Positions 2 through 52,172 of a DNA stretch of 64,000 nucleotides are shown here, one piece after another (the stretch's first letter is position 1; every line of letters starts with the position of its first letter). The notes beneath the pieces are model-generated. The model was not told where the DNA came from. It saw only the letters and a program-made list of their open reading frames with translations, and did not search any database. The stretch lies in the NCBI GenBank assembly GCA_965263165.1, contig OZ253584.1:64178-128177 (forward strand), given 5' to 3'. Made by a program: the position numbers and the translations under genes. The DNA comes from Dehalococcoidia bacterium (GTDB lineage: Bacteria; Chloroflexota; Dehalococcoidia; Lucifugimonadales; SAR202-VII-2).

Positions 2-793
2 TCGTGCCGGGCCGCGATCTGCGGTTCGTGCGCAATGCGCGTGAACGGGCGCGCCGGCCTCGGCTGCAAGACCCGGCTCCTCAGCAACGCCGATGACGAC
101 GGCGTTGTCAGGGTGGAGCCGATGGGCAACCAGCCCGTCGTCAAGGACCTCGTCGTGGACATGAGCGTGTTCTGGGGCAAGATTCGAGCCGTGAAACCCT
201 ACCTTCAACCCGAAGGCCCAGAGCCCGAGGGGGAGTATGTCGCTTCCAACGACTCCATGCTCAAGCTTCTCCAGACCATGGGCTGCATCATGTGCGGCGC
301 CTGCGTCTCCGACTGCACAGTCCTCGAGGTGAACCAGGACTTCCTCGGGCCCGCAGCCCTCGCCAAGTCCTACCGCTTCGTGGGCGACCCCAGGGACGAC
401 GCCACAAACCAGCGGTTCGCCGAGTTGGACGAGGCCGGCGGGATGTGGGACTGCACCCGCTGCTTCGAGTGCGTCCAAGCGTGCCCCAAGGGCGTGGCTC
501 CCATGGACCAAATCATGAAGCTGCGGGAAGAGGCCGCAGCCGCCGGCTTCACCAACACCACGGGCGCCCGCCACGCCGAAATCTTCGCCGAAACGGTGAA
601 GCACAGCGGCTGGGTGGACGAGCTTCAACTCGCCGTGAAGACCCCCGGCATGTTCAACATCGCCGCCCAAATCCACAACATGCCCGTCGGCATTCGCGCC
701 TTCCTACGGGGCAAGCTCCCACCCGTCGTTCACAAGGCCATCCCGGACGTGAGATTCGTGCGGCGCATCTTCGAAAAGGTCGAGGAAGATTAA
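2..793 (+). CDS. sdhB: Succinate dehydrogenase/fumarate reductase iron-sulfur subunit (5' truncated by window edge)
   Basis: SCRAAICGSCAM 2Fe-2S motif at the window start; CIMCGACVSDC and CTRCFECVQACP ferredoxin motifs. Confidence 0.9.
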   Translation, partial: SCRAAICGSCAMRVNGRAGLGCKTRLLSNADDDGVVRVEPMGNQPVVKDLVVDMSVFWGKIRAVKPYLQPEGPEPEGEYVASNDSMLKLLQTMGCIMCGACVSDCTVLEVNQDFLGPAALAKSYRFVGDPRDDATNQRFAELDEAGGMWDCTRCFECVQACPKGVAPMDQIMKLREEAAAAGFTNTTGARHAEIFAETVKHSGWVDELQLAVKTPGMFNIAAQIHNMPVGIRAFLRGKLPPVVHKAIPDVRFVRRIFEKVEED

Positions 794-1689
794 TGAAATA
801 CGCCTTCTTTCCCGGCTGCGTCTCTCGCGGCGGCTGCCCGGAACTGTACCCCTCCGCAGTGAAAGTCTGCGAGCGATTGGGCATCGAACTGGATGAGATG
901 CTGAACGCGTCATGCACCGGCGCAGGCGTACTCCAAGAAAAGAACAAGAAGCTTGGCGACACCCTCAACGCCCGCACGATGGCCATCGCAGAGAAGATGG
1001 GCTACGACACCATCATGGTTATCTGCTCCACGTGCCAGGGAGTGATGAGCCAGGCCAAGAAGGCCCTAGACTCCAACGCCGCCTATCGCGACGAGATCAA
1101 CAGCTACCTTGCCGAGGAGGAGCTGAAGTACACCGGCAACGTCCAACCCAAGCACCTTCTCTGGGTGCTCATAGAAGACATCGGTTTGGACAGAATCCGC
1201 GAGCACATCCAGCAACCCCTGCAAGGCGTGAAGCTGGCGCCGTTCTACGGTTGCTACATCGTCCGGCCAACCAGTGCTCTGGGGTTTGACGAGAACCCTG
1301 CCCGCCAGACGTCGCTAGAAACGCTCATCGAGTTGGTGGGTGCCGATGTCGTGGATTTCTCCGGCAAGACCCGTTGCTGCGGCTTCCCCATTCTCACCAT
1401 CAACGAGCAGGCTTCTGTGCGCATGGTGGGGAACCACACAGGCGAGGCCAAGGCCCTTGGCGCCGACGCTATGGTGACGCCTTGCCCTCTGTGTCACCTC
1501 AATTTGGACGGCTATCAGCCCGCCGCCGCCAAGCAGCGCGGCAAGAGCATTGGCCTTCCCATCCTTCACTTCCCGCAGATGATGGGCCTCGCAATGGGCA
1601 TATCCGCCAAGGAGATGGGCCTACAGCGGCACGTCATAGACACCAAGCCCGTGCAAAAGATGTTGGCTGAAACAAGCCCTACCTCTTGA
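793..1689 (+). CDS. CCG-domain protein (HdrB/SdhE-like membrane anchor subunit)
   Basis: ATG at 793 overlaps the sdhB stop (TAATG); YAFFPGC, SCTG, CSTC, FYGC, RCCG and TPCPLC motifs. Confidence 0.85.
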   Translation: MKYAFFPGCVSRGGCPELYPSAVKVCERLGIELDEMLNASCTGAGVLQEKNKKLGDTLNARTMAIAEKMGYDTIMVICSTCQGVMSQAKKALDSNAAYRDEINSYLAEEELKYTGNVQPKHLLWVLIEDIGLDRIREHIQQPLQGVKLAPFYGCYIVRPTSALGFDENPARQTSLETLIELVGADVVDFSGKTRCCGFPILTINEQASVRMVGNHTGEAKALGADAMVTPCPLCHLNLDGYQPAAAKQRGKSIGLPILHFPQMMGLAMGISAKEMGLQRHVIDTKPVQKMLAETSPTS

Positions 1690-29914: not shown

Positions 29915-30002
29915 TGGTGCCGAGGGTGGGAATCGAACCCACACCCCCGTTGCCGGGGAAAGGGTTTTAAGCCCCTCGCGTCTACCTTTCCGCCACCTCG
30001 GC
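29915..30002 (-). tRNA. tRNA-Leu (anticodon TAA)
   Basis: GCCGAGG/CCTCGGC acceptor stem, AGGGG-CTTAAAA-CCCTT anticodon arm, long variable arm, GGTTCGATTCCC, encoded CCA. Confidence 0.95.
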
Positions 30003-39654: not shown

Positions 39655-39988
39655 GGCCTTTCCGATTGCCCCTTTCCGGTTGCCTAGGATACCACATCCG
39701 CCGGACGGCCCGGCGCCGTCGGCTGTCCCCGCGAGAGCCTGTTCAAGCCAATCCCCCCATTGCATTGTCAATACAGGACCGTAAAACGACACATGCGCCT
39801 ACACCGTCAAGGATGAGGCTGTCGTTCCCCAAGCGTGGTGCAGGAGCAACTCCTCTCTTCCTGCCCGGGTGCTCGGGTGCAAGTTAGGAAGGGGCTCTGA
39901 CCCGTCGACCGTGGCGACGGCGTTGGGAATGCTGCTCACGCAACCTCCAGGACAACCGAGGGTATGGGGGCGGGGTCGCAAGCCACAC

Positions 39989-40095
39989 AAAAAAGCCCGC
40001 CTCGGCGAGACGGGCTCCCAGGGACGGGCTGATAAGCAACCAAAGACGGGCCGAAACAGAGCCGGCCCGAAGGGGGCGGGACTAACCTGCTATGG
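39989..40095 (-). ncRNA. Putative small RNA or attenuated leader
   Basis: Minus-strand promoter TTGCGG-17-TAATGT, internal hairpin CGGGCCGG/TCGGCCCG, terminator AGCCCGTCTCGCCGAGGCGGGC-TTTTTT. Confidence 0.45.
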
Positions 40096-40415
40096 GCCTA
40101 CATTAGCACACACGTTCCACTTCCGCAAGAGGGTGTTGGCAGAGTGGACGGCGGGATGGCCTACCAGACTTGGCCTTAGTGTACTGTAATCAGACTGTGT
40201 CCCTAAGATGCGGCAGTCGCCGTTCTCGCAGGTGGAGTTTCTGACCGAGGAGACTGCGGTGAAGCGGCGGTCAAAGCGTTCCTTGGAGAATCCGAATCCG
40301 ATCCTGGTCGCGTGTGCCCACTTGCTGGGTGGGGTTGGAACGACGATAATGTATGGCGATCTTCCCGAAGACTTGTGGGCTCTATTCCGGTGAGTAGGTA
40401 TTATTTCTGGATATT

Positions 40416-41993
40416 ATGGTGAAGCTTGTCGACTTGCTAAAGCCAGGCTACTTCCCTAAAGAGCTTCCCCCGCCGTTCACGACAGAGTCATTCGAATCTC
40501 TTCTAGAACGTGATCCTTCCCTATTCGCTAGTCTGTCTAAGGGGCGTCAGGAAACCGTTCCCGCTCGGCACAGCCTATCTCGAGCGGGAAGTCTGCGACG
40601 CCTTCTTTCTATACCCAACCCGCTGTCGTTTCTTCGATTGTCGGAGTGGTTCGAACAAAATTGGGCTTTCGTGGAGAAACAATGCCGGAAATCCTCGCAT
40701 TCGTTGAGCAAGCCGCAGATGTCCTCGGCGGATCGAGCCGTAGTGGCGGAAGTCCCGTTCAATCAACAACCGACACATCAGGCAGATCTGCGCGCCAAGT
40801 CAAGATATATACTCAAAACGGATATCACCAATTGTTATCCATCCATCTACACGCATAGTATCTCTTGGGCATTGCATACGAAGGCGGAGGCGAAATCTCG
40901 TCGGGGTCCATCTGCCCTAATCGGCAATCAATTGGACAAGCTCGTCAGGGTTGGTCAGCACGGTCAAACTATTGGTATCCCAATCGGTCCTGACACATCA
41001 TTTATCATAGCAGAAATAGTCTTATCCTCGATCGATGAAGAATTCTGTAAGAGTATGAAGAAAGAGAAATTGGAGCTAAATGGCTTTAGATCATATGACG
41101 ACTTCGAATTCGGGTTCACTACTAGAGCCGATGCAGAGAGAGCAGTCTCGATTCTCCAAAAGGTGCTGAGCGAATACGAATTACAGCTCAACCCGGGTAA
41201 AACAACTATAGTGGAACTACCCGTTCCTATAGAATCAAATTGGGCATCGGAACTCCGCGCGTTTAAGTTCGATGACAATTCCCAGACTTGGGACCTGCGA
41301 AGGTATTTTGATCGCGCTTTCGAGTTTTCGAGACTGAACCGCGATTCAGAAGTTCTGAAGTACGCGATCCAGCGGTTGCGCTCTGTCGACATTGCCAGGA
41401 AGAACTGGACGCTATGCCAAGATCTCCTTTTGCAGTGTGCAATGGTCGAGCCCAGCGCATTGCCAGCAGTGGTCGATCATTTGCATTTCTATAAGAACAA
41501 AGGCTTCCCTTTGAACGTGCCCAAAGTTAGCGAGGTTTTCAACGTCCTATTGAGTTCACATGCGCCGCTAGGCCATGGCAGCGAGGTGGCCTGGGCCCTG
41601 TGGGGATGCTTGCTTTTCCATCTCCAGATCAAGAACTCTCCGGCATCGGCGGTTGCTGAGATGGATGACTCGGTTGCAGCGTTGCTATTGCTGCACGCTC
41701 AAGTTTTAGGATTGATCCGTAGCAAGACAGCACTCAAGATGGCACTACGAAATTGGCAGCAAGTGTTGACACAAGATGGACTTCGCGACAGTCAGTGGTT
41801 GCTATCGTATGAGGCGAACATCAAGGGTTGGCTTTCGTCAGCAAAGGACCACGTCTCGAACGATGCCCAGTTCAGCCTTCTAAAAAAGCATGGTGTGTCA
41901 TTTTACGACACTGGTAAAGTGAGGTCGCATACGCCTACCAAACGCTATCTGCCTGGTTCCGGAGCGGGAGGGGGAGATGGTGGCGGTTACTGA
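40416..41993 (+). CDS. RNA-directed DNA polymerase, UG/Abi-like defence-associated reverse transcriptase
   Basis: GYFPKELPPPF N-terminus, KTDITNCYPSIYTHSISWA, GIPIGPDTS, RSYDDF, LNPGKT, helical C-terminal domain; visibly lower GC than its flanks. Confidence 0.88.
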   Translation: MVKLVDLLKPGYFPKELPPPFTTESFESLLERDPSLFASLSKGRQETVPARHSLSRAGSLRRLLSIPNPLSFLRLSEWFEQNWAFVEKQCRKSSHSLSKPQMSSADRAVVAEVPFNQQPTHQADLRAKSRYILKTDITNCYPSIYTHSISWALHTKAEAKSRRGPSALIGNQLDKLVRVGQHGQTIGIPIGPDTSFIIAEIVLSSIDEEFCKSMKKEKLELNGFRSYDDFEFGFTTRADAERAVSILQKVLSEYELQLNPGKTTIVELPVPIESNWASELRAFKFDDNSQTWDLRRYFDRAFEFSRLNRDSEVLKYAIQRLRSVDIARKNWTLCQDLLLQCAMVEPSALPAVVDHLHFYKNKGFPLNVPKVSEVFNVLLSSHAPLGHGSEVAWALWGCLLFHLQIKNSPASAVAEMDDSVAALLLLHAQVLGLIRSKTALKMALRNWQQVLTQDGLRDSQWLLSYEANIKGWLSSAKDHVSNDAQFSLLKKHGVSFYDTGKVRSHTPTKRYLPGSGAGGGDGGGY

Positions 41994-42519
41994 AGTGAAC
42001 TCTGAAGTTTGGACAGATAGTTAAGTTTGAGTTCTGCTTGTAGGACCGCACGGGCAGGAGACGAGGAGGACATAGGAGAAGCCACTCCTTAGCGTTCAAG
42101 GCGAAGGCGCGGTTGGCGTCGGGTTACCGGAACTCGCCGCCAACGAAGCGGCGCATGCCAACCAGAACCTCCGTTGAAGGGGGGCGCAGGCCACAACAAC
42201 ACCCCCCGGGGCGCCTCTCTTCCTGCCCTCGTACTCGGGGGAAGGTTAGGAAGGGGGTCCCCCTCGCGGGAAGCAGAACAACGGCCCCCCCTCATCTCTC
42301 CAAGCGGGGTGCAGGGGACGCAGCCCTCGCCGGGGGTACAGGGGGTGTCCCCCTGTACCCCCGGCGGAGGGTGGGCAGGTGGGACAACGGCGCAGGCCAA
42401 AGCAGACCCTCCGCCGATGGAGGGCGCAAGCCACAACAAATCCATCCGCCCAGGTTATGCCCCACCCCCATTGCAAAATACGACATTGCAAAATACGAAC
42501 GATTGTGCTGTAGTACCCC

Positions 42520-42714
42520 CATGAAGTGGGCCACCGGCCCGCTTCTCTTCCTAGGAGCCTGCCGCATACATGAGCACTGGGGGCTAACCACAGAGAATCC
42601 CCCCTGTGGCAGGAGCGCTGAGGGAACAACCCAAGGGGCAAGACCCTCCGAGGAAGGTTGGGACCGGAGTGAATGCCGTTGTAAGGCACAGGCTTCCTGG
42701 AGCCATCCAACTCC
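42520..42714 (+). ncRNA. Putative structured RNA, copy A
   Basis: Follows TTGCAA-17-TGTAGT; multi-stem fold shared with copies B and C. Confidence 0.5.
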
Positions 42715-42814
42715 GTAACGGCTCGTAACGATTGGTAACGGCTCCGTAACGACTCGTAACAGCTTTGTAACGACTCGTAACGCCCTTGTAACGGCTTGTA
42801 ACGCCTTTGTAACG
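42715..42814. repeat. Phased GTAAC array
   Basis: 10 GTAAC cores spaced 10,10,11,10,11,10,11,10,11 bp. Confidence 0.85.
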
Positions 42815-43127
42815 GCTCCACGCCTACGGAGCGCCGGGGGAGAAGAAAACGCAGTAACGCATACAATCAAACAAAGCCCCGTCCGTCTCCCAAGCAGGGT
42901 GCAGGGGGCGCGCAGCCCCCGCCGGGGGTACAGGGGGAGTCCCCCTGTACCCAAAAACGTTGGAGGGCGGGCAGGTGGGACAACGGCGCACGCCAAACCA
43001 GACCCTCCGCTGAAGGAAGGCGCAGGCCACAACAAGCCCACCCATCCCCAATCCCTGCCCCCTGCCTCGGGGGAAGCCTCTGCCACATCCCCATTACATA
43101 ATACGAACTATTGTGCTATGGTAGCCC

Positions 43128-43320
43128 ATGAAGTGGGCAGCCGGCCCGCTTCTCTTTCTCGGAGCCTGCCGCATACATATTGCACTGGAGGCTAACTACA
43201 GAGAATCCCCCTGCGGCAGGGGCGTTGAGGGAACAACCCAAGGGGCAAGACCCTCCGAGGAAGGCTGGGACCGGAGCCAGTGCCGTTATAAGGCACAGGC
43301 GGTTTGGAGCCATCCCGCTC
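43128..43320 (+). ncRNA. Putative structured RNA, copy B
   Basis: Follows TTACAT-17-TATGGT; same stems as copy A, with pairing-compatible substitutions. Confidence 0.5.
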
Positions 43321-43321
43321 C

Positions 43322-43414
43322 ATGACGGTTCCGTTACGGTTCGTTACGGAACCATTACGGTTCCTTTACAGTTCCTTTACGGTTTGTTACGCCCTATTAC
43401 GCCTTTGTTACGGC
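43322..43414. repeat. Phased TTACG array
   Basis: 9 cores at 10/11-bp spacing. Confidence 0.8.
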
Positions 43415-43919
43415 CCCACGCCTACGGGAGAAGAAAAAGCAGGCGCACAAACAATCAAAGAGTCACAAACAATCAAAGAATGAGGTTGAGGCCGGGAGAA
43501 GCTCCTCCCGTCCCTGCCCGGATGCTCGGAGGAAGGTTAGGAAGCGTCCCATCCCCCAAGCAGGGTGCAGGGGGCCCAGCCCCCGCCGGGGGTACAGCGA
43601 GTCCCCCTGTTTCCAAAAACGTTGGAGGGTGGGCCGGTGGGACAACCGCCTCCGCCACCATAAGCCCCCTCCCGTCCATGCCCGGATGCTCGGAGGAAGG
43701 TTAGGAAGCGTCCCCCGTCATGCGCTTGAATCGCAGTGCGCCCCGCACAGCTTGTTCAGAGATTCCCTAGTGTGAACAGGCCCGAAACGAGGCCCATCCC
43801 TGAGGACGGAAGCAGCCGCCGCAGTGTTTCATGGTAGAATGCCGTGAAGCGAGACCCTTACCGTCCAACCAGGCTGGCAAGGACAATGCTGCCCGCGCCT
43901 GGAGCCTCCAGCGAATGGG

Positions 43920-44696
43920 ATGCGCCTGATGGAAGAGCATTCCCCGCCCCGAGCGCCGGAATCGCTGGCGACCGCCAAGCTTCCCACGGCCCGCATCGTC
44001 CGCCGCCGCCAGTTCGCAAGAGACCTCTTCATCCTCTGGCTCGAACCCCGGGTTCCCTTCTCCTTCAAGGCCGGCCAGTATGCCACCCTGGGCTTCGACG
44101 GCGTCGAGCGCCCCTATTCCATCGCCTCGGCGCCCTCTGAACCCCTGCTCGAAATCTTCATGCGCCGCGTTGGGCCGGACCGAGGCGGCGTCCTCACGCC
44201 CCGTCTCTGGGAGCTTGGGCCGGGCGACGACGTGACGATGCGCCCGCGGGCCAAGGGGCTGTTCACCTTCGACCCGGACGCCCGAGACCACGTCATGGTG
44301 GCGACCACCACTGGCATCGCCCCGTTCGTCAGCATATTGCGCCACCACTTCCGCGACGGCCCCGGCGACAACCGCTTCTTCATCTTCGACGGCTCCAACC
44401 ACCAAGACGAGTTCATCTACGATGCGGAGCTCATAGAGTTGACCCGGCGCCATCCGCAGTCGGTCGAGTTCATCCCGGCGGTCAGCCTTCCGGAATCGGA
44501 CATCAACCGCGGGTGGACGGGGCATACCGGCCTCATCCACGAGCTGGTCAAGGAGCGCCTCAGCCTCTGGGGCTTGGAGAAGGCCCACACCCTGGTCTAC
44601 GCCTGCGGCCACCCCGGCATGATCACCGGCGTCAAGGAAGACCTCCTCCCCGAGGAATGGCGGTTCAAGGAAGAGCGCTTCTGGCGCGACCCCTAA
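43920..44696 (+). CDS. Ferredoxin--NADP reductase-like FAD/NAD(P)-binding oxidoreductase
   Basis: FKAGQY, RPYSIAS, TTGIAPF, YACGHPGMI, ERFW. Confidence 0.9.
   Translation: MRLMEEHSPPRAPESLATAKLPTARIVRRRQFARDLFILWLEPRVPFSFKAGQYATLGFDGVERPYSIASAPSEPLLEIFMRRVGPDRGGVLTPRLWELGPGDDVTMRPRAKGLFTFDPDARDHVMVATTTGIAPFVSILRHHFRDGPGDNRFFIFDGSNHQDEFIYDAELIELTRRHPQSVEFIPAVSLPESDINRGWTGHTGLIHELVKERLSLWGLEKAHTLVYACGHPGMITGVKEDLLPEEWRFKEERFWRDP
44634..44669 (+). repeat. Left copy of a 36-bp direct repeat (inside the reductase 3' end)
   Basis: 33/36 identical to 49865-49900. Confidence 0.75.
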
Positions 44697-44725
44697 ACGC
44701 CCCGCCCCGCCACAGGGAGCCGACC

Positions 44726-45271
44726 TTGCAAAGAGCTCGCTACGCCCGTTCCGCCGGTGTGAGGGCCCTTGGTTGCCTTGGCGCTGTCGCCACAGTGCTA
44801 CTCGCGTCCGTCCTGCTGACCGCGTGCTCGTCTTCCCCTAGCCCAGACATCCCGACACCGGACAGCGTCTCCACAGCGCAGGCTTCTTCAGCAGGAAGGG
44901 ACATTTTCGCCTCAAATTGTGCCGTATGTCACGGAGCCGCTGGCGAGGGTCAACCGGACTGGCATGTCAGTAAGGACGACGGCACACTGCCCCCGCCGCC
45001 GCTAAATGGCGACGGGCATACCTGGCACCATGCGGACGGCCTCTTGTACCTCACTGTAAGCCAGGGTGGAAAGATTTTTGAAGACCCCAGCATTCCGAGC
45101 TTCAAGAGTGCAATGCCTGCATTTGGAGATCGGCTCAGCCGCCAAGAGATAGTCGAAGTGCTCACGTATGTGAAGAGCCTATGGGGGGACAAGTCCAAAC
45201 GGGGAATGTCCATCCAGGAGTCGCAGGCGCTGGCTAGTGAACAAGACCCCTTCCCGTCGGATGGAACGTAG
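44726..45271 (+). CDS. Cytochrome c lipoprotein
   Basis: LLTAC lipobox, CAVCH heme motif, PPLNGDGHTWHH, MPAF; TTG start after AGGGAG. Confidence 0.85.
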   Translation: MQRARYARSAGVRALGCLGAVATVLLASVLLTACSSSPSPDIPTPDSVSTAQASSAGRDIFASNCAVCHGAAGEGQPDWHVSKDDGTLPPPPLNGDGHTWHHADGLLYLTVSQGGKIFEDPSIPSFKSAMPAFGDRLSRQEIVEVLTYVKSLWGDKSKRGMSIQESQALASEQDPFPSDGT

Positions 45272-45422
45272 ATGCTAGCCAGGAGCCTCGGGTGATTCGA
45301 CTCGGTCTGCAGATCCTCATGCCCGCACACCCTGTTCCCGTGCTTGTCAGACCAACATGACGGGTGGTACAACTATCGGGAGCCATCCTGTGCCAGACAC
45401 AACGCAAGCGGAGGGTTTGACA

Positions 45423-46832
45423 GTGCGCAAACTAGTCGCGGCAATAGTGATCATCGCTCTTGTCCTGCTCGGTGCTGCCTGCCGGGGAGATGCGGGGCCT
45501 GCCGGGGAACAAGGGCCGCCCGGGCCTCAGGGCCCGGCGGGTGCTCCCGGACCGGCCGGGCCTACCGGTCCCGCGGGGGACATCGCCTCTCTGGATCAGG
45601 CCACCATTGCCACGGTCATTGAGCAGCTGCAAGAACTGTCGGAGGCGAGGATCGCCGCCGCCAAACCGCCGGCGCCGGCGCCCCCCAAGTGGGAGCCCGC
45701 CGAGTACACCCGGTACTTCGTCAAAGCGGCCATCAGCAAGTACCAGTCGGAAGGTCTCGATGCCACCGTCGCCTACTACAACACCAGCGAGAGCATTGAC
45801 GGCCAGTGGTACGTCTTCATCGTCGACCAAGCCGACATGGTGCTCGCCCACGCCGCCAACCCCGACCTCGTCGGCCAGCCCACCTCCGCAGCCGTCGGGC
45901 CCAACAACTATCCCGCTGGAGAAGCCGTGGTCGCCGTTGCCGACGAGGACGGCGAATGGCTCAGCTACACCTTCATCAATCCCGCCACTGGCGTCGCCGA
46001 GACCAAACATTCCTGGGTGATTGAGTACGACGGCCTGACCTTTGGATCAGGCTGGTATGAGCGCGCGCCTGGCAAGTCAGACGCCCCCGCTTACACCAGG
46101 GCTCTCGTAGGGCGGGCTATAGACCTGTATAACGCCATCGGCCGCGAGGACGCGGTGGCCTACTACAACACTACGGAGAGTGTGGACGGCCAGTGGTACG
46201 TCTTCATCGTCGACCAAGCCGACATGGTGCTCGCCCACGCCGCCAACCCCGACCTCGTCGGCCAGCCCACCTCCGCAGCCGTCGGGCCCAACAACTATCC
46301 CGCTGGAGAAGCCGTGGTCGCCGTTGCCGACGAGGACGGCGAATGGCTCAGCTACACCTTCATCAATCCCGCCACTGGCGTCGCCGAGACCAAACATTCC
46401 TGGGTGGTTGAGTACGACGGCCTGACCTTTGGATCAGGCTGGTATGAGCGCGCGCCTGGCAAGTCAGACACCCCCGCTTACACCAGGGCTCTCGTAGGGC
46501 AGGCTATCGACCTGTATAACGCCATCGGCCGCCAGGACGCAGTGGCCTACTACAACACCAGGGAGAGTGTGGACGGTCAGTGGTACGTCTTCATCGTCGA
46601 CGAGAGCGGCTACACCATAGCCCACCATAATCCGATGTTTCGAGGTCGGGAGCCCAGCCTCCGCGTCGACGCCGCGGGGTACTTCTACGGCGACGACTTG
46701 CTGGGCGCCACCGAGTCGGGACGCTGGGTCGACTACGTGCTGCTGAACCCGGAAACGGGTGATGACCGGCAGAAGCATACCTGGGCAGTGCGCCATGACG
46801 GGTTGATCTTCGCCTCGGGGTGGTACGAATAG
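45423..46832 (+). CDS. Lipoprotein with a collagen-like segment and three Cache-like domains
   Basis: LGAAC lipobox, G-X-Y repeats, three WYVFIVD...KH(S/T)W...GWYE units with a 387-bp period. Confidence 0.8.
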   Translation: MRKLVAAIVIIALVLLGAACRGDAGPAGEQGPPGPQGPAGAPGPAGPTGPAGDIASLDQATIATVIEQLQELSEARIAAAKPPAPAPPKWEPAEYTRYFVKAAISKYQSEGLDATVAYYNTSESIDGQWYVFIVDQADMVLAHAANPDLVGQPTSAAVGPNNYPAGEAVVAVADEDGEWLSYTFINPATGVAETKHSWVIEYDGLTFGSGWYERAPGKSDAPAYTRALVGRAIDLYNAIGREDAVAYYNTTESVDGQWYVFIVDQADMVLAHAANPDLVGQPTSAAVGPNNYPAGEAVVAVADEDGEWLSYTFINPATGVAETKHSWVVEYDGLTFGSGWYERAPGKSDTPAYTRALVGQAIDLYNAIGRQDAVAYYNTRESVDGQWYVFIVDESGYTIAHHNPMFRGREPSLRVDAAGYFYGDDLLGATESGRWVDYVLLNPETGDDRQKHTWAVRHDGLIFASGWYE

Positions 46833-47504
46833 CCGCAAACCGCCTTGTCGCCTGCTGTCCCTAGGGTCTGGACGTTGATGAGGCTCGACGGCCTTATGAA
46901 AGGGCTGCGCGCCGTCAGCCGGGAAATCAAGGGTGGAGCGAAGTTTGGCTGACCTGCCCCCATTCGTTGTGCCAGCTGTTGTGTTACTCCAACGAGCATC
47001 GGGATAGGTGCTAGAGGCAGGATGCTACGGGAAATTGCTCGTCGAGCACTTCGATTGGGGCGAAAGGCACGGTGGACTCGAACCGCCGAGAAGCAGTCCA
47101 TGAAGCCGCAGAAACCCGCGTGCACAGGATAGTGGGCCTACACGTACTGAATCGCGAACTTTTGAGCGGACGTGACGCTCTGGGGTGTCCTATTCCCGAG
47201 TAGCTGCGACAGGTGGCGGCCTTCTGTAAAATGGAGTTCCAGCGGCAAATCCTGCTGTTTGACGACGCACGAGCACCGCTCGTTGCCCGGTGGTACAGCC
47301 TGCCAACTCCCCCCGAACCTACGCCTGAGCGCCACCTGCACGCCTCCAAGCCCGAAGAACTAATGAACTTCGGCTTCTCCTAGGTCGGTAGCCTCTCCGA
47401 CACGAAGACCAGTCTGGCTGCAAGGTCACGATATGGTCGTGATGCGCAGCCCGACGTGTCGGCAGATCCTGGCCGTAGGACGGGCTCTAGCAGGGTAGTT
47501 TGCT

Positions 47505-48158
47505 TCAGGGCTTTGTAAGGCCTCGCTCCGCCATCTGCGACTCAAGGAACTGGCGGCCCGCGGAGGCGAACTCTCCCTCTGCAGCTGTCGCCGCGTCGAT
47601 GTCAAGCCAGAGTGACTGCAACAGAGCCGGTTCGCTCGCCGCTCGCTCCACAAGATCCAGCAGCCAATGTAGGCGCATGAGAGTCTCGCCCCGCGCGAAG
47701 AGTAAGTCCTTCCGATTCAGATCCAAGCGAGTAATCGTCGCCCGGGCACGTGCGCCGCCGCGTGGCAGTGCGAGCGGGCCGCCAAAGGCTACTTCCTCCT
47801 CGACGTCATCTACGTAAGGGTCGAGTAGTCGGCATTCTCGTATGTCGTAGTCTCCCTTGTTCGTGTTGCACTTAGGGCAGGCGATAGTTAAGTTCTCCCA
47901 GTCACAGACCAACTTCGGGTGCTTCCTCTTCGGTAGCTTGTGTTCGATGTGCGTATAGGCGACATCGCTGATTCGTCCCTCGCAATATGCGCACTTCGAA
48001 GCCGTCTCTGCCTCGAGCGCTGAACGGATCTCCGGGTGAGCGTAGCGGAGCGGAGCCGTCCCTATGGGGTTCACGCACCAGTTCACGTACTCAGCAGTCC
48101 ACGCCTCGCCGTTCTCTACGAGAACTTGAGGCCGCGATCCATGGCTCAGGCGGATCAC
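47505..48158 (-). CDS. HNH endonuclease (PtuB/Septu-like)
   Basis: KCAYCE, HIEHKLPK, WENLTIACPKCN, LLDPYVDD; overlaps the ATPase stop. Confidence 0.8.
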   Translation of the reverse strand: MIRLSHGSRPQVLVENGEAWTAEYVNWCVNPIGTAPLRYAHPEIRSALEAETASKCAYCEGRISDVAYTHIEHKLPKRKHPKLVCDWENLTIACPKCNTNKGDYDIRECRLLDPYVDDVEEEVAFGGPLALPRGGARARATITRLDLNRKDLLFARGETLMRLHWLLDLVERAASEPALLQSLWLDIDAATAAEGEFASAGRQFLESQMAERGLTKP

Positions 48159-49414
48159 ACTATGCCGCCCTTGCCTGTGTCATTGGCCGGCAGAAGTCGG
48201 TCTATGACCTTTGGGAACAGGTCACCCAGGCCGATTGAGTTGAGCTGCATTCTAAGTGTGGAGAGCAACTCCGTGGTGAGCTCTTTTTCCCCGACGGAGG
48301 CAACAATCTTATCGACTTCGTCCTCCACCCAGAGGGGAACGGGAAACGGCACCCCGAGAACGTCTGTAAGGATCTGATTTGCGGTAGCGGACCGGTCGAC
48401 ATCAGCGAGCTTTGTGGACTTCACGCGACCGTCTACGAAGTCGAGGACTACGACGTTCGAATCCCGGACCGATGTCACCACAAACGGGTTGTGTGTAGCA
48501 ACGATGAATTGCGCTTTAGGAAACGCGGCAAGGAGTCCAGGAAGCACGGAACGTTGGAGGCGTGGATGGAGGTGGTTTTCAGGCTCGTCCATCAGAACGG
48601 TGAAGGTCGCATCCGAGCGAGACCGCATGTAGATCTGCCAAGCGACGTCCACAAGTGCGGCGATGCCACCCGACGCTGCGTCCAGCGAGAAGTCACCGGT
48701 TCCCGTCTCCAGGATCACCTCTGGCATTTGCATCGCGATCCGTCGGAAGTCGAGGTCAGCGGGGAGCACACGGCGGAGGACTTCAGAGAAGCCCTCGAAC
48801 GTCTCGCGCGCCTCGTCGTTCGGTGTAACGACTTGGTTTCCATAGCCGAACATTGCCAGCGAGATCAGCGCCGCCTTTAGTCGGTAGCTGGGGGACTGAA
48901 TCTGGGCTTTGGGTTGGTAGAACTGGCGAAGATTGTCCAGGTACTGTCTAAACAGTTGATCACCTGCCTTAACGTCGGTAGGGATCTCGGTCACCCTTTG
49001 ATAGGAGTAGACCGGGCGGTGCGAGGTGATGTAGACGCCGGGCACTGCCTGTGAGTCACGGATTGCGATCTGGAAGGTGGCACCTTCCGTGGGTGACTGG
49101 AGGGCCGCGACGGCTCCGTCGTCGTAGGTGAGTTTCCCCACATCGAGGTTCCCGTCGTCGACGTCACTGATGACTCCGGAGAAGTACCTTAGAGCTCCCC
49201 GGCGGTCGATTCGGAGAGTGCCTATGAAGGTCGGTGTCCACCCGAAGTGCTGACTCAAAATGCTGAGAAGCGTTGTTTTGCCAGAGCCATTCGCGCCGGT
49301 GATGATCGTCGCCTGAGGGTGAAATTCAATCTGAACCGAGCCGAACTGGCGCCAACCTGCGATCTCAAGCGCCTGAAACTTAGTCATCTTTGGCCTCTCT
49401 GGGCTTTCTGTCAC
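48155..49414 (-). CDS. AAA/ABC-type ATPase (PtuA/Septu-like)
   Basis: Walker A GANGSGKTT, ASGG signature, LMDEPENHLHP, ATHNP. Confidence 0.82.
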   Translation of the reverse strand: MTESPERPKMTKFQALEIAGWRQFGSVQIEFHPQATIITGANGSGKTTLLSILSQHFGWTPTFIGTLRIDRRGALRYFSGVISDVDDGNLDVGKLTYDDGAVAALQSPTEGATFQIAIRDSQAVPGVYITSHRPVYSYQRVTEIPTDVKAGDQLFRQYLDNLRQFYQPKAQIQSPSYRLKAALISLAMFGYGNQVVTPNDEARETFEGFSEVLRRVLPADLDFRRIAMQMPEVILETGTGDFSLDAASGGIAALVDVAWQIYMRSRSDATFTVLMDEPENHLHPRLQRSVLPGLLAAFPKAQFIVATHNPFVVTSVRDSNVVVLDFVDGRVKSTKLADVDRSATANQILTDVLGVPFPVPLWVEDEVDKIVASVGEKELTTELLSTLRMQLNSIGLGDLFPKVIDRLLPANDTGKGGIV

Positions 49415-49864
49415 TACCCCGACGCCACTCGCACCGAGACGAACGTGGGTATACGAAGGGCGAGAATCTCAGTGCCATGCCCGTGCGGCTATTGTATCCC
49501 CCAGCCCTGTACCACGTCGAACTATGTGGCAAGTCAGGCTTATGACTCATTCCAATTCAGCAAGGACATTCCTTGGTGTCAATTCAGACTCAACGGCGTT
49601 GCCCAATGGGATGGATGTCCCGATGTGCCTCATTGTACCCTCGTGACAAGTTCGAGTCCTTCTGGCCCACCTACATCTTCATCGAGCCACGCGCTGGCTA
49701 TTGGATGCCGCAGGGGCAGAAGTCGCGACCGCGTCGTACTGACCTTTCTCGTTAGGCCTTCAACCCCCCCACCCACCAGCACCCCAGCTTCCGGTGTCTA
49801 TTGTGTACCGCCAACCCTCCCTGACTCGTCCCTCTGTAACCGAAATGAGGCGACGACGAGCCGA

Positions 49865-49900
49865 AAGGAAGACCTCCTCCCCGGGGGATGGCGGCTCAAG
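49865..49900 (+). repeat. Right copy of the 36-bp direct repeat
   Basis: AAGGAAGACCTCCTCCCCGGGGGATGGCGGCTCAAG, 33/36 identical to 44634-44669. Confidence 0.75.
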
Positions 49901-50179
49901 TCGCCGTCCCCTACTCACCTCGCGAGTATGACGGTATCGGAGTCGCCCCAGCAGGCGACGGAGCCGTCCACCCTCACCCCGCAGTTTTAGGAGCGTATCG
50001 GAAAGCCGGCATCTTGTTGCGTCGCATCATCCCAGGAAACCTCTGACCAAGCCGCCCCCCGCCACACCGCGCCCCACCCCGGAGGCGGCTCTGTCCCTGC
50101 CCCCGGACCCGGGGCAGGTTAGGAAGCGTTCCTGTCTCCCCCCTCTTGCAAAATAAGAACGATTGTGCTATGATATGGC

Positions 50180-50380
50180 CATGATGCTAAAGTATCCCCA
50201 GGAAGCGGGCCGGCGGCCCGCTCCTCTTCCTTGGAGCCTGCCGCATACGTCTGTACTGGGGGAGTCCAGAGAGAATCCCCCTGTGGCAGCGTCTGGGGGA
50301 TGTTCCCCAGACGCACAACCGTCCGAGGAAGGGTGGGACCAGAGCGAATGCTGTTTCGAGACAAGCTCTTTGGAGCCATA
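50180..50380 (+). ncRNA. Putative structured RNA, copy C (diverged)
   Basis: Follows TTGCAA-17-TATGAT; keeps GGAGCCTGCCGCATAC, GAGAATCCCCCTGTGGCAG and CCGAGGAAGG. Confidence 0.5.
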
Positions 50381-50470
50381 CGGCTCCGCCACGGTTCATT
50401 ACGGTATCGCTACGACTTCACTACGGCTCATCACAGCTCTCTTACGGCTTTGTTATGCCTCTGTTACGGC
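50380..50470. repeat. Phased degenerate TACGG array
   Basis: 9 cores at 10/11-bp spacing. Confidence 0.65.
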
Positions 50471-50621
50471 TCCGTGCCTGGAAACCTCGAAATCCGGCTG
50501 ATACGCGTAACGAATATACAATCAAAGGGGGCGCCTCTCTCTCTCGGGGGAATCCCCTGTCCCTCCACAGCGACCGCCGCGCCAGTTTCAGCACATCGGT
50601 GTAACATAGCTCGTAGTTCAA

Positions 50622-52172
50622 TTGGCAGAGGTAGGTCGCGTGACGAATCGCATATTCCGGCTGACGTTCTTGGCGGCGGCCGTGGCTGTCCTAGTCATAG
50701 GCTGCAACGACGCGACGGCGGAGCCCAGCGTGGAGGCCACAACCGCGGAGGCTGCGGCTACCGTTCCGCCCCCGTCGTCAACGGCGGCGGCGTCTCCCGA
50801 GCCCACGCCTACTCCAGAGCCGTTCGCCTACGACCCCAACAAGAACATGTTCCTCCTGATGTCGAGCGCAGGTCATCCTCTGGAGTACACGTTGGCGGCG
50901 CTGACGAGGGCGCAGGAGGAGAGAGACGCCTCCCAGGTGCCTGTGATCCTGGAGGCTATGCAGTTCTTCCCCCGCGACTTGGCGGAATTCGGCATAGAGA
51001 CCCTCGCCGCCCTGACCGGCGAGGACTTCGGTCTGGACCGGCACATGTGGTGGGAGTGGATCGGCCCAAGGCTTGACGAATACGCGCCACCCTCCGGTTA
51101 CGCCCTGTGGAAGGTCAACCTTCTCAGCCTGATAGACCCGGCGATGGGCAAGCTCATGGAGCCGGCCATCGAAGGAGGCTCCAGGGCCAACCTTGTCGAG
51201 ATCGTATGGGGAGGCGTGCGGGTCGACGGCATTCCGCCCCTGGAGCAACCGTTGCACGTGAAGCCCGAGATGGCGGGATATCTGGAGCCCGACGACAGGG
51301 TGTTCGGCGTGTCGATCAATGGCGAGCACAGGGCGTACCCGCTGCGGATACTGAATGCGCACGAGCTAGCCAACGACGAACTGGGAGGCGAGCCCATCTC
51401 GCTTGTCTACTGAACGCTCTGCGGCTCCGGAATCGTGTATTCCGGCATCGTAAATGGACAGAGCACCACGTTCGGGACTTCGGGGCTGCTGTACCGCAGC
51501 AACAAGGTGATGTACGACCGCGCCACCCGGTCGCTGTGGCATCAGTTCACCGGGGAGCCCATCATCGGGCCGCTCGCCTATTCCGGCATCAAGCAGCCTT
51601 TCTTCTCGGCCGTCGTCGCGACGTGGGAGGAGTGGCTCGCAGAGCACCCTGACACGACCGTCTTGGCCAATCAGACCGGCGTCTACCAGCCGGAGTTCTA
51701 TGTGCCCGAGGACGACCCGCGGGCCATCTACTACGACTACTTCTCGACGGACGAGATAAGGTTCCCGGTCTGGTTCCGCGACCCCGTGATAGAGCCCAGG
51801 AAGGTGGTCGTCGGGCTCGCCGTGGGCGACGGGAAGAAGGCATACACGGTCGATGACCTGCGCGAGGCCCGGGTAGTCAACGACACGGTGGGAGGCGTCG
51901 ATGTCGTCATCGCGGCATCAGGCGAGTCGCGCTCCGCCCGCGCCTACGAAAGGCACGGGGAGACGTTCTCGCTGGAGGACGGCCAAGATTCTGAGGCCGC
52001 GCCCCGGTCCCTGGTGGACTCCGCCGGCGCCAGGTGGCAGGTCACCGCGGAGGCGCTGGTCAGGGAGGACGACCCCTCCATGACGCTGTCGCGCATCCCG
52101 ACGCAGACCTCGTTCTGGTTCGGATGGTACCAGTACAACCCCGACACCGAGATATACCAGCCGAACGGCTAG
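50622..52172 (+). CDS. DUF3179 family selenoprotein (in-frame UGA read as Sec), probable lipoprotein
   Basis: Two in-frame ORFs joined by TGA 51411-51413, giving LVY-U-TLCGSG; DGIP, RAYPLRIL, FGTSGLLYRSN, YDRAT.SLW, FWFGW motifs. Confidence 0.85.
51427..51445 (+). promoter_or_regulatory. Putative bacterial SECIS hairpin
   Basis: CCGGAAT-CGTGT-ATTCCGG starting 13 nt after the UGA. Confidence 0.65.

Follow-up and report, generated by a model that had tools for sequence, protein, structure and literature searches.

The stretch of 64,000 nucleotides analysed here, referred to as the window, belongs to a Dehalococcoidia bacterium of the Chloroflexota (contig OZ253584.1, positions 64,178 to 128,177). 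It encodes a reverse transcriptase (RT) that scores as Drt6 (2.5e-176) and Drt4 in PADLOC and, on the other strand, a Septu pair formed by PtuA (4.7e-146) and PtuB (3.7e-55). Three copies of a repeated module, designated A, B and C, lie in the same region, and modules A and B begin approximately 490 and 1100 nt past the RT stop codon, on the same strand as this gene. The first-pass annotation had described each module as an SOS-box promoter followed by a structured RNA and a phased repeat array, and had proposed that the family could serve, or be spread by, the neighbouring RT. The three modules are indeed present where that annotation had placed them (Table 1), and the spacer between the -35 and -10 elements is 17 nt long in all of them.

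The anatomy common to the three modules starts with a promoter that contains the tetranucleotides GAAC and GTGC inside its spacer, and continues with a 5' hairpin GAAGYGGGCC/GGCCCGCYYC (P1), a long-range helix CTTYCTNGG/CCGAGGAAG, an inner helix CTGCCGCA/TGYGGCAG that encloses GGGGG/CCCCC, and a variable hairpin. Their 3' part is composed of two small hairpins, an array of 10-11-nt units and a tail ending ACAATCAAA(G/C). Individual traits are superimposed on this plan, since module B carries the terminal 18 nt of its tail in duplicate (ACAAACAATCAAAG twice) and module C displays an additional 5' hairpin and a variant P4 hairpin, CGTCTGGGGGATGTTCCCCAGACG. At the promoter level, the box of module A reads GAAC-GATT-GTGC, and its -10 has a G at a near-invariant A position (1/94 copies); the -35 of module B is degenerate. 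The promoter of module A is probably weakened. A simple promoter scan is passed by module C only.

Table 1. Positions of the modules, their parts and neighbouring features in the window.
Feature	Position	Strand	Remarks
Module A	42486-42871	+	promoter, leader, GTAACG array, tail
Module A, -35	42486-42491	+	TTGCAA
Module A, first half of box	42497-42500	+	GAAC
Module A, second half of box	42505-42508	+	GTGC
Module A, -10	42509-42514	+	TGTAGT
Module A, leader	~42521-42712	+	P1 hairpin, P2/P3/P3a/P4 junction, P5, P6
Module A, array	42714-42818	+	GTAACG units; periods 10/21/31
Module A, tail end	42862-42871	+	ACAATCAAAC
Module B	43094-43477	+	leader architecture as in A
Module B, promoter	43094-43122	+	-35 TTACAT 43094-43099; -10 TATGGT 43117-43122
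Module B, array	~43325-43415	+	GTTACG units; periods 11/22 at 43325-43391
Module C	50146-50526	+	mixed (C/A)TTACG/CTACG array; tail ACAATCAAAG
Module C, promoter	50146-50174	+	-35 TTGCAA 50146-50151; -10 TATGAT, with TG, 50169-50174
tRNA	29918-30002		Rfam 15 match
Module-type promoter and truncated prohead-protease 5' fragment (~65 codons)	39844-40128	-	TTGCGG...GAACGTGTGTGCTAATGT; exact motif at 40100-40117
RT gene	40416-41993	+	
GC-rich REP-like hairpin units	42089-42485	.	families D6, D8-D11; context, outside module
REP-like units	42872-43093		
REP-like units	43478-43760		
Cache-domain protein gene	45357-46832		
387-nt tandem repeat	45771-46601		2.1 copies, 96% matches
PtuB	47505-48158	-	
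PtuA	48155-49414	-	

The count of three copies turned out to be a large underestimate, as the genome from which the window comes (G000; 3,093,406 bp) contains approximately 125-147 of them. When the three modules were compared with this genome by blastn, 147 merged places were obtained, 94 of them with lengths of 330-430 nt and another set with lengths of about 190-260 nt; a regular expression for the promoter gave 125 anchors. The exact motif GAACNNNNGTGCTANNNT occurs 122 times in G000, 103 times in its sister species G002, 42 times in G231, which belongs to another order of the class, and once each in G001, the third species of the genus, and in G010, a member of the same order, the reversed control giving 0-1 matches (0 in G000). 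In total, G002 has about 103-119 copies and G001 a single, founder-like one. The module was found by blastn in 2/41 genomes. A covariance model built from 48 copies (R1) matched 3/151 genomes of the order and 2/151 of the class, disclosing distant relatives in G086, G231 and G010, and a second model rebuilt to include these relatives (R2) matched the core hairpin doublet of the leader in 33/151 genomes sampled from the class, generally with several matches in each. The claim that this is a multicopy family foreign to Rfam has been sustained: at the gathering threshold of Rfam 15 only a tRNA passed and no module was matched, and in E-value mode only chance-level hairpin matches were obtained over the modules, and likewise no match at L102, a distant homologue locus. 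Neither did blastn against plasmid and phage collections yield any match to the module, nor is it described among the papers listed by a full-text literature search on repetitive extragenic palindromic (REP) elements in Chloroflexi. A divergent relative of the module is located at ~647.9-648.2 kb of G000 (L124), to the left of an IS110 copy; it keeps the promoter and a P1-like hairpin, has a different body and bears a short 11-nt array (TCATCGCGGGG, ~3 units).

Some copies of the family are associated with genes for the terminase large subunit (terL). All the terL genes found in the genus (6/6) have a module promoter 350-760 bp upstream. In G000, tblastn locates three such genes (at 141035, 2952917 and 3021318; 428 aa, with Terminase_6N and 6C domains), each 400-550 nt downstream of a co-oriented module. 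Two of these three loci were examined base by base, and both present a full module with its array and most of the tail, followed after ~60 nt by a ribosome-binding site (GAGGTG) and a small ORF that abuts terL; the product of this ORF starts MDYR.../(M)HYN... and contains a CxxC...CxxxC motif. In G002 the motif lies 717 and 741 nt upstream of the two terL genes, on the same strand. The small ORF and terL form an operon whose 5' leader, in both G000 and G002, is the module. The only copy of the motif in G001 is composed of the promoter TTGCGG-17-TATAGT, a P1-like hairpin and a T-run, and lies ~350 nt upstream of a 76-aa ORF and the terminase large subunit gene. The same promoter type is also found ~100 nt before a 518-aa portal frame in G000 and before a cluster encoding a prohead protease (S78), an HK97 capsid protein, a head-tail adaptor and a tail-terminator-like protein. 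The protease-capsid-adaptor cluster has one full copy in G000 near 194 kb; a truncated protease fragment behind a module-type promoter is present in the window (Table 1), and a second truncated copy is located near 1834 kb. Each of the three species of the genus retains terL and portal. Blastn of the terL locus at 140 kb gives 86-125 matches over its first 250 nt, 16-24 over the next 400 nt, where GTCAC repeats are followed by the 5' portion of the small ORF, and 3 for terL. This fall in the number of matches identifies the short copies of ~220 nt as 5' pieces of the module-small ORF-terL unit that have been cut at various points on their 3' side.

Across the family, the promoter is close to the sigma-70 consensus (TTGCAA-17-TATAGT), and its spacer contains a GAAC-N4-GTGC box that is conserved. 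Its conservation was counted on 94 copies defined by blastn and not by the motif. The bases of TTGCAA are kept in 94/94/92/93/91/89 copies, those of GAAC in 94/89/93/93 and those of TGTGCTA in 93-94, while the bases between GAAC and TGTGC agree with the consensus in merely 57/66/68. In the -10 hexamer the T, the A and the final T are kept in 94/93/94 copies and the three middle positions in 85/80/82; in addition, CC is present at -16/-15 upstream of the -35 in 92/94. Functional positions are thus conserved in 93-100% of the copies and adjacent positions in as few as 60-72%. Such conservation is that expected of a working promoter (TAnnnT, with a TRTG extended -10) that holds a two-half-site operator, and indicates selection, since neither neutral decay nor blanket gene conversion would yield such a pattern.

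The nature of this box bears on the damage-inducibility that had been suggested for the module, which is plausible in view of the nearly invariant GAAC and TGTGC around a variable centre and of a box variant common to recA. The lexA gene of G000 has a canonical CGAAC-ATTC-GTTC box downstream of its promoter, and GAAC-N4-GTTC is the Gram-positive LexA motif according to PMC3323433. The recA gene of G000 displays GAAC-GAAT-GTGC, and GAAC-N4-GTGC is present at recA in 3/3 species of the genus, including G001, which has no module family and whose box differs at its centre (AGAT). The recA promoters of G086 and G231 contain TGTGCTA and no GAAC, which makes TGTGC part of the general extended -10 as well. 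In G001, the single module-type promoter, which precedes the small ORF and terL, is divergent from a gene for an SOS response associated peptidase (SRAP) at L191 (G001:C3:206323-210609), 128-832 (-). Taken together, these observations make LexA control of the module promoter a plausible prediction.

Downstream of the promoter, the leader is expected to fold. The plus strand of module A (42514-42712) reaches -84.1 kcal/mol with z = -2.21, a value that 6/200 shuffles equal, versus z = +0.33 for the minus strand. The part of the leader shared throughout the class is a hairpin doublet, (G)GAGT-CCAGAGGG..CCCTCTGG-CAG-GGGTCTGGGGG(A)TGTCCCCCAGA, after which a G-rich run is frequent. In an alignment across orders made with R2, 35/45 pairs are altered on both sides and covariation scores 0.247, compared with 0.121 for the shuffles (0/500 reach the observed value), figures that are inflated because the alignment was fitted to the model. 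In its rows outside G000, G-U departures outnumber A-C ones by 69 to 18, in an alignment that by its construction favours pairing and G-U. By these measures covariation is strong across the class and weak inside the genus. Some G231 copies resemble discrete small-RNA genes, one of them with its own promoter and with a hairpin and T-run after it, and others, located behind a GAAC..GTGCTATAAT promoter, have repeated CAATCAAG motifs after them. From these G231 copies it can be deduced that the promoter, the core and the CAATCAA tail are associated across orders, and that the GTNAC array is specific to the lineage of G000 and G002.

The leader holds a conserved ATG (MKWAAGPLLFLGACRIH...), which raises the question of whether a small leaderless protein is encoded in every copy. 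Of 82 copies retaining ATGAAG, 67 have the A of this start codon as the 7th base past the -10, and the predicted N-terminus resembles a short lipoprotein-type signal. However, ATGAAG is missing in 27/109 copies, the ORFs span anything between 2 and 200 aa, substitutions at the three codon positions amount to 132/123/173, differing codons include 95 synonymous and 215 non-synonymous cases, and the same bases make the P1 hairpin. A leaderless protein is therefore highly improbable, and the coding test agrees with the earlier statement that no consistent ORF is shared among the copies; on these sequence criteria the unit is treated as non-coding.

The phased array announced by the first-pass annotation was recovered as well, both by the periods that Tandem Repeats Finder detects in modules A and B (Table 1) and by the length of the chains of units, which exceeds that of shuffled arrays (median 7 units and maximum 12 in 80 copies, versus median 2 and maximum 4). 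Each copy contains 4-12 GTNAC(G) units separated in those 80 copies by gaps of 11 nt (304 cases) or 10 nt (174 cases), with a mean of 10.64 nt. The logo of the unit is R-Y-N-A-C-G-N-Y-T, the GTNAC core of the commonest subfamilies being a palindromic pentamer, and the subfamilies have units of their own (GTAACG, GTTACG, GCGACG, GTGACG). The array is followed by an A/C-rich tail ending ACAATCAAAG, whose motif is tandemly duplicated in some copies. At the 140-kb terL locus, GTCAC repeats hold the place of the array before the small ORF. Small-terminase sites such as lambda cosB and the operators of cooperative repeat-binding proteins offer parallels for a phased array of this sort. A period of one DNA helical turn and a position just upstream of the small ORF and terL point to the array being a DNA-level binding platform.

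A bolder interpretation of these features is that the arrays are pac/cos-like packaging-recognition sites and the copies entry points of the terminase for a domesticated head-filling system related to gene transfer agents (GTAs). Such a head and packaging machine would be switched by the SOS response, so that DNA damage would allow terminase entry at dispersed GTNAC sites about every 25 kb while the leader RNAs are co-induced. The array does lie directly upstream of the small ORF and terL, a position comparable to that of lambda cosB-type small-terminase binding sites, and its 10.64-bp phasing would fit DNA wrapped on one face of a protein. Moreover, terL, portal and the protease-capsid-adaptor-terminator genes are distributed in separate operons with one promoter type, terL and portal are conserved in the three species, and ~125 copies in 3.09 Mb represent one per ~25 kb. 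Nevertheless, no tail genes (tail tube, tape measure or others) adjoin the capsid locus, the rest of G000 not having been searched for them, and the system is known from genes alone. Furthermore, the terL of G001 lacks an array, and the variation of the unit sequence among subfamilies is awkward for a single recognition protein. For these reasons, a packaging role for the arrays is considered improbable.

The comparison of G000 with G002 gives information about the stability of the family. Twelve G002 copies have clean syntenic flanks, and for 11 of them G000 also carries a copy at the corresponding site; the remaining one is short and lies within a 640-bp insertion unique to G002 and bounded by terminal inverted repeats (TIRs), and two further copies mark rearrangement breakpoints between both genomes. 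Module C has its orthologue in G002 inside a syntenic block of 93% identity, and some orthologous sites differ in array type. From this synteny, the copies are old and mostly static. They are also intergenic, with 2/107 overlapping gene calls, and 38/107 lie between convergent genes versus ~16% of gene pairs, while 41/107 face a co-oriented downstream gene; these context figures derive from crude gene calls made on ORFs, which account for 72% of the genome. In G000, both the GC skew and the bias in gene orientation are weak.

Such a distribution is compatible with a selfish or neutral dispersed repeat, similar to REP elements and bacterial interspersed mosaic elements (BIMEs), to BOX elements or to miniature inverted-repeat transposable elements (MITEs), in which promoter and fold are just baggage from the founder. 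The location between convergent genes is the usual pattern of tolerated insertion, stem mutations look neutral within the genus, subfamilies are mosaic with arrays that differ between some orthologous copies, and the copies at breakpoints and in the TIR-bounded insertion are also in agreement with this possibility. What makes it unlikely is the contrast between functional promoter positions and their neighbours, the occupation of nearly all the syntenic sites in both species, and the lack of any mobilizing signature. Inspection of 80 copy ends (CC..TTGCAAAAT / ACAATCAAAG) revealed neither TIRs nor target duplications, which also discards a MITE, only one short copy riding in a separate TIR-bounded insertion. 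A REP/BIME system with a REP-associated tyrosine transposase (RAYT) was rejected because PF01797 (Y1) has 0 matches in G000, G002, G001 and G231; that profile, with 0 matches in G000, and PF07282, with 0 in 5 genomes, likewise dismiss an IS200/IS605 palindrome-associated transposable element or a TnpB omega-RNA.

The insertion sequence (IS) IS110 looked at first as if it co-occurred with the module, since G000 has 5 copies, G002 has 2 and G231 has 9, while G001 and G086 lack it. A bridge RNA of IS110 was nevertheless rejected, as five aligned copies fix the ends of the element at CCCCCATCCTTGTATC... and ...GCTAACCTTCC, excluding the module, and the module-type promoter near one copy is ~270 nt outside the left end. 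These five near-identical IS110-family elements, of ~1.18 kb, reside at 648.2-649.4 kb and at four other sites (L124, L127, L130, L132), and appear to target REP-like units, because their right end abuts a REP-like ...CTAACCTTCCCCCGAGTAC unit each time. One of the IS110 copies carries 2 inserted nt near the beginning of its transposase gene. The TIR GGAGACCT.TGCA, which surrounds one insertion restricted to G002, was discarded as a general boundary of the module, given that a loosened pattern has 3+3 matches in G000 and the repeat is the TIR of two IS families. Two IS families of G000 share the TIR GAGACCTTTGC(G/A)TAA and are found mostly beside REP-like units; the first is a 1217-bp element at ~12-13 sites (e.g. 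649366-650582 and 976671-977887) and the second begins GGAGACCTTTGCGTAACCAAGGCAGG and has ~17 sites. Finally, a type III toxin-antitoxin array of the ToxI kind, made of ~36-nt repeats plus a toxin, does not fit with units of 10-11 nt and with the absence of a conserved gene after the orphan copies.

The link to the RT, in which the module RNA would be a template, guide or regulator of the adjacent enzyme or would be spread by it, like the non-coding RNA (ncRNA) of retrons and defence-associated RTs (DRTs) or a short interspersed nuclear element, has in its favour the proximity and shared orientation of modules A and B. The occasional tandem duplicate of the tail motif could add to it, as it resembles some retroelement 3' ends. 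However, G000 has this RT as its sole RVT_1 gene versus more than 120 modules, and the gene itself scores as Drt6/Drt4. In the syntenic interval of G002 the RT is absent and a diverged module copy is present, module C being kept too. The Septu pair is equally absent from that syntenic region, so both the RT and the Septu pair count as strain-variable defence genes. Among 19 loci encoding relatives of the RT, from many phyla and with one at 74% identity, none matches R2 at E < 0.01 (the single match has E = 0.82); the consistent adjacency to an RT across relatives expected of a retron or DRT ncRNA was thus found at 0/19 loci. Besides, the repeated unit contains the promoter and bases upstream of the -35, which counts against spread by the RT because an RNA copy would not carry such bases. 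With many scattered copies unlinked to the RT, the connection is abandoned as scarcely credible.

Altogether, the best-supported account is that this GAAC-N4-GTGC leader family, unmatched in Rfam 15, is a multiplied, promoter-bearing terminase leader, whose phage-derived late promoter is probably under SOS control. An operon of the small ORF and terL, derived from a phage, would have supplied its 5' control region and leader, and the modules would be orphan copies of this segment, dispersed to more than 100 places in one lineage of a Chloroflexota (Dehalococcoidia-like) genus, a reading to which a probability of roughly 0.55 is given. Each copy would be a self-contained transcription unit consisting of promoter and operator, a leader of ~200 nt, the array and the A/C-rich tail, with the leader opening with a hairpin and folding into a multi-stem junction around the class-wide hairpin doublet. 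At terminase loci the small ORF begins ~60 nt past the array and tail, and nothing coding follows the orphan copies. Since the promoter type is common to the phage operons and the box is present at recA, the orphan units are most likely co-activated with the portal, protease-capsid-adaptor and recA genes, probably when DNA damage inactivates LexA, and a non-coding leader RNA would be produced. The phased array would most likely be a DNA platform for a small terminase-associated protein or a regulator. The orphan copies may function as RNAs, or they may serve as sinks for a regulator or as sites of packaging recognition.

Several observations weigh against this account. Terminase genes are found at only 3 of the ~125 G000 copies, and the direction of the process, from leader to orphans instead of a mobile element captured as leader, is suggested by the one simple copy of G001. 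The small ORF has 46 relatives, none of them named or with Pfam domains, and its AlphaFold2 model is poor (mean pLDDT 57); its designation as small terminase is a guess from position. The transcription of the modules, their start site and their 3' end are predictions, and a search for sequencing runs listed none of RNA. Regarding the operator, the module box departs from the canonical LexA site, with GTGC in place of GTTC, and overlaps the TRTG extended -10, so the regulator could be phage-derived instead of LexA. As for the fold, the stems named in the first-pass annotation exist and fold, but their being kept despite divergence is only weakly true within the genus: in 48 copies 89.6% of the cells pair versus 89.0% in column shuffles, 5/45 pairs are altered on both sides with little compensatory change, and departures from Watson-Crick pairing include 71 G-U and 66 A-C. 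Given such scant compensatory change, and stem-breaking A-C as frequent as G-U, the fold may be inherited and not selected copy by copy, and the covariation across orders comes from an alignment fitted to a model that favours pairing. Lastly, the identity between orthologous G000 and G002 copies is 89-90% for the promoter, the core and the tail and 80% for the array, and the flanking genes in the syntenic blocks of the window are 91-95% identical; the constraint on the module as a whole is thus modest.

The surroundings of the modules in the window are also repetitive. The GC-rich REP-like units that flank modules A and B (Table 1) are very abundant in G000 and have copies in G001 too, which lacks the module family. 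Their sequences include GGGTGCAGGGGGCGCAGCCCCC, GGTACAGGGGG(T/A)GTCCCCCTGTACC, a G-rich GGAGGGTGGGCAGGTGGG and CTCGGAGGAAGGTTAGGAAGCG, and their G-rich runs look able to form G-quadruplexes. A tandem repeat is contained within the gene of the Cache-domain protein, and metagenome contigs pile up there. Metagenome contigs of four runs over 40000-52000 break at repeats, and the few joints observed (e.g. 42257 to 43554, with other letters between) are explicable by other genomic copies and were not used.

Dispersed intergenic repeats are known from several bacteria, among them the REP/BIME elements of E. coli, the pneumococcal BOX and the Correia elements of Neisseria. The module is like them in its more than 100 intergenic copies, its modular mosaic build with internal units that vary in number, its strong hairpins and its overrepresentation at the 3' ends of genes. 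Unlike them, it has a complete near-consensus promoter and an operator-like box under selection, and no TIRs; unlike REP/BIME, it has no RAYT/Y1 transposase in G000 and can be traced to the leader of a terminase operon. The resemblance to lambda cosB and phage pac sites lies in helically phased short repeats immediately upstream of the small ORF and terL, a location beside terminase genes found for 3 G000 and 2 G002 copies. It differs from these in that no terminase gene accompanies the remaining ~120 copies of G000, the array is inside a predicted transcribed leader, the unit varies by subfamily and the binding to the array is putative. The box resembles the Gram-positive LexA operator (PMC3323433) in its conserved GAAC, in the variable 4 nt at its centre and in its location within the promoter spacer, and departs from it in its second half-site, GTGC, which doubles as the TRTG extended -10, LexA binding being putative.

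GTA regulons such as that of Rhodobacter capsulatus (RcGTA) provide another comparison: phage genes for the head and for packaging have been retained in different species, at several separate loci and with one promoter type, and their control may be SOS-linked. Unlike in RcGTA, there are no tail genes beside the capsid locus and the module system is known from genes alone; among the titles and abstract openings listed by a full-text literature search, none deals with a GTA of Chloroflexi. Lastly, retron msr-msd and DRT2-type ncRNAs adjoin defence RTs, as a structured non-coding region adjoins the RT gene in the window, but here the adjacency is coincidental, involving 2 of ~125 copies and none of the RT relatives.

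The implications of these results are of different kinds. A tempting but false link between an RT and an ncRNA has been removed, and the core hairpin doublet becomes a candidate new structured element for curation of the Rfam type. One promoter/operator type joins recA, a divided set of phage genes for head and packaging, and over 100 orphan leaders into a putative regulon, in a phylum whose regulation and mobile DNA have been little studied. If the box is a LexA site, ~120 strong operators would constitute a major sink for LexA and the source of a large damage-induced RNA output. If the arrays bind a partner of the terminase, they would, if this is true, represent the first case of packaging sites dispersed on a chromosome.

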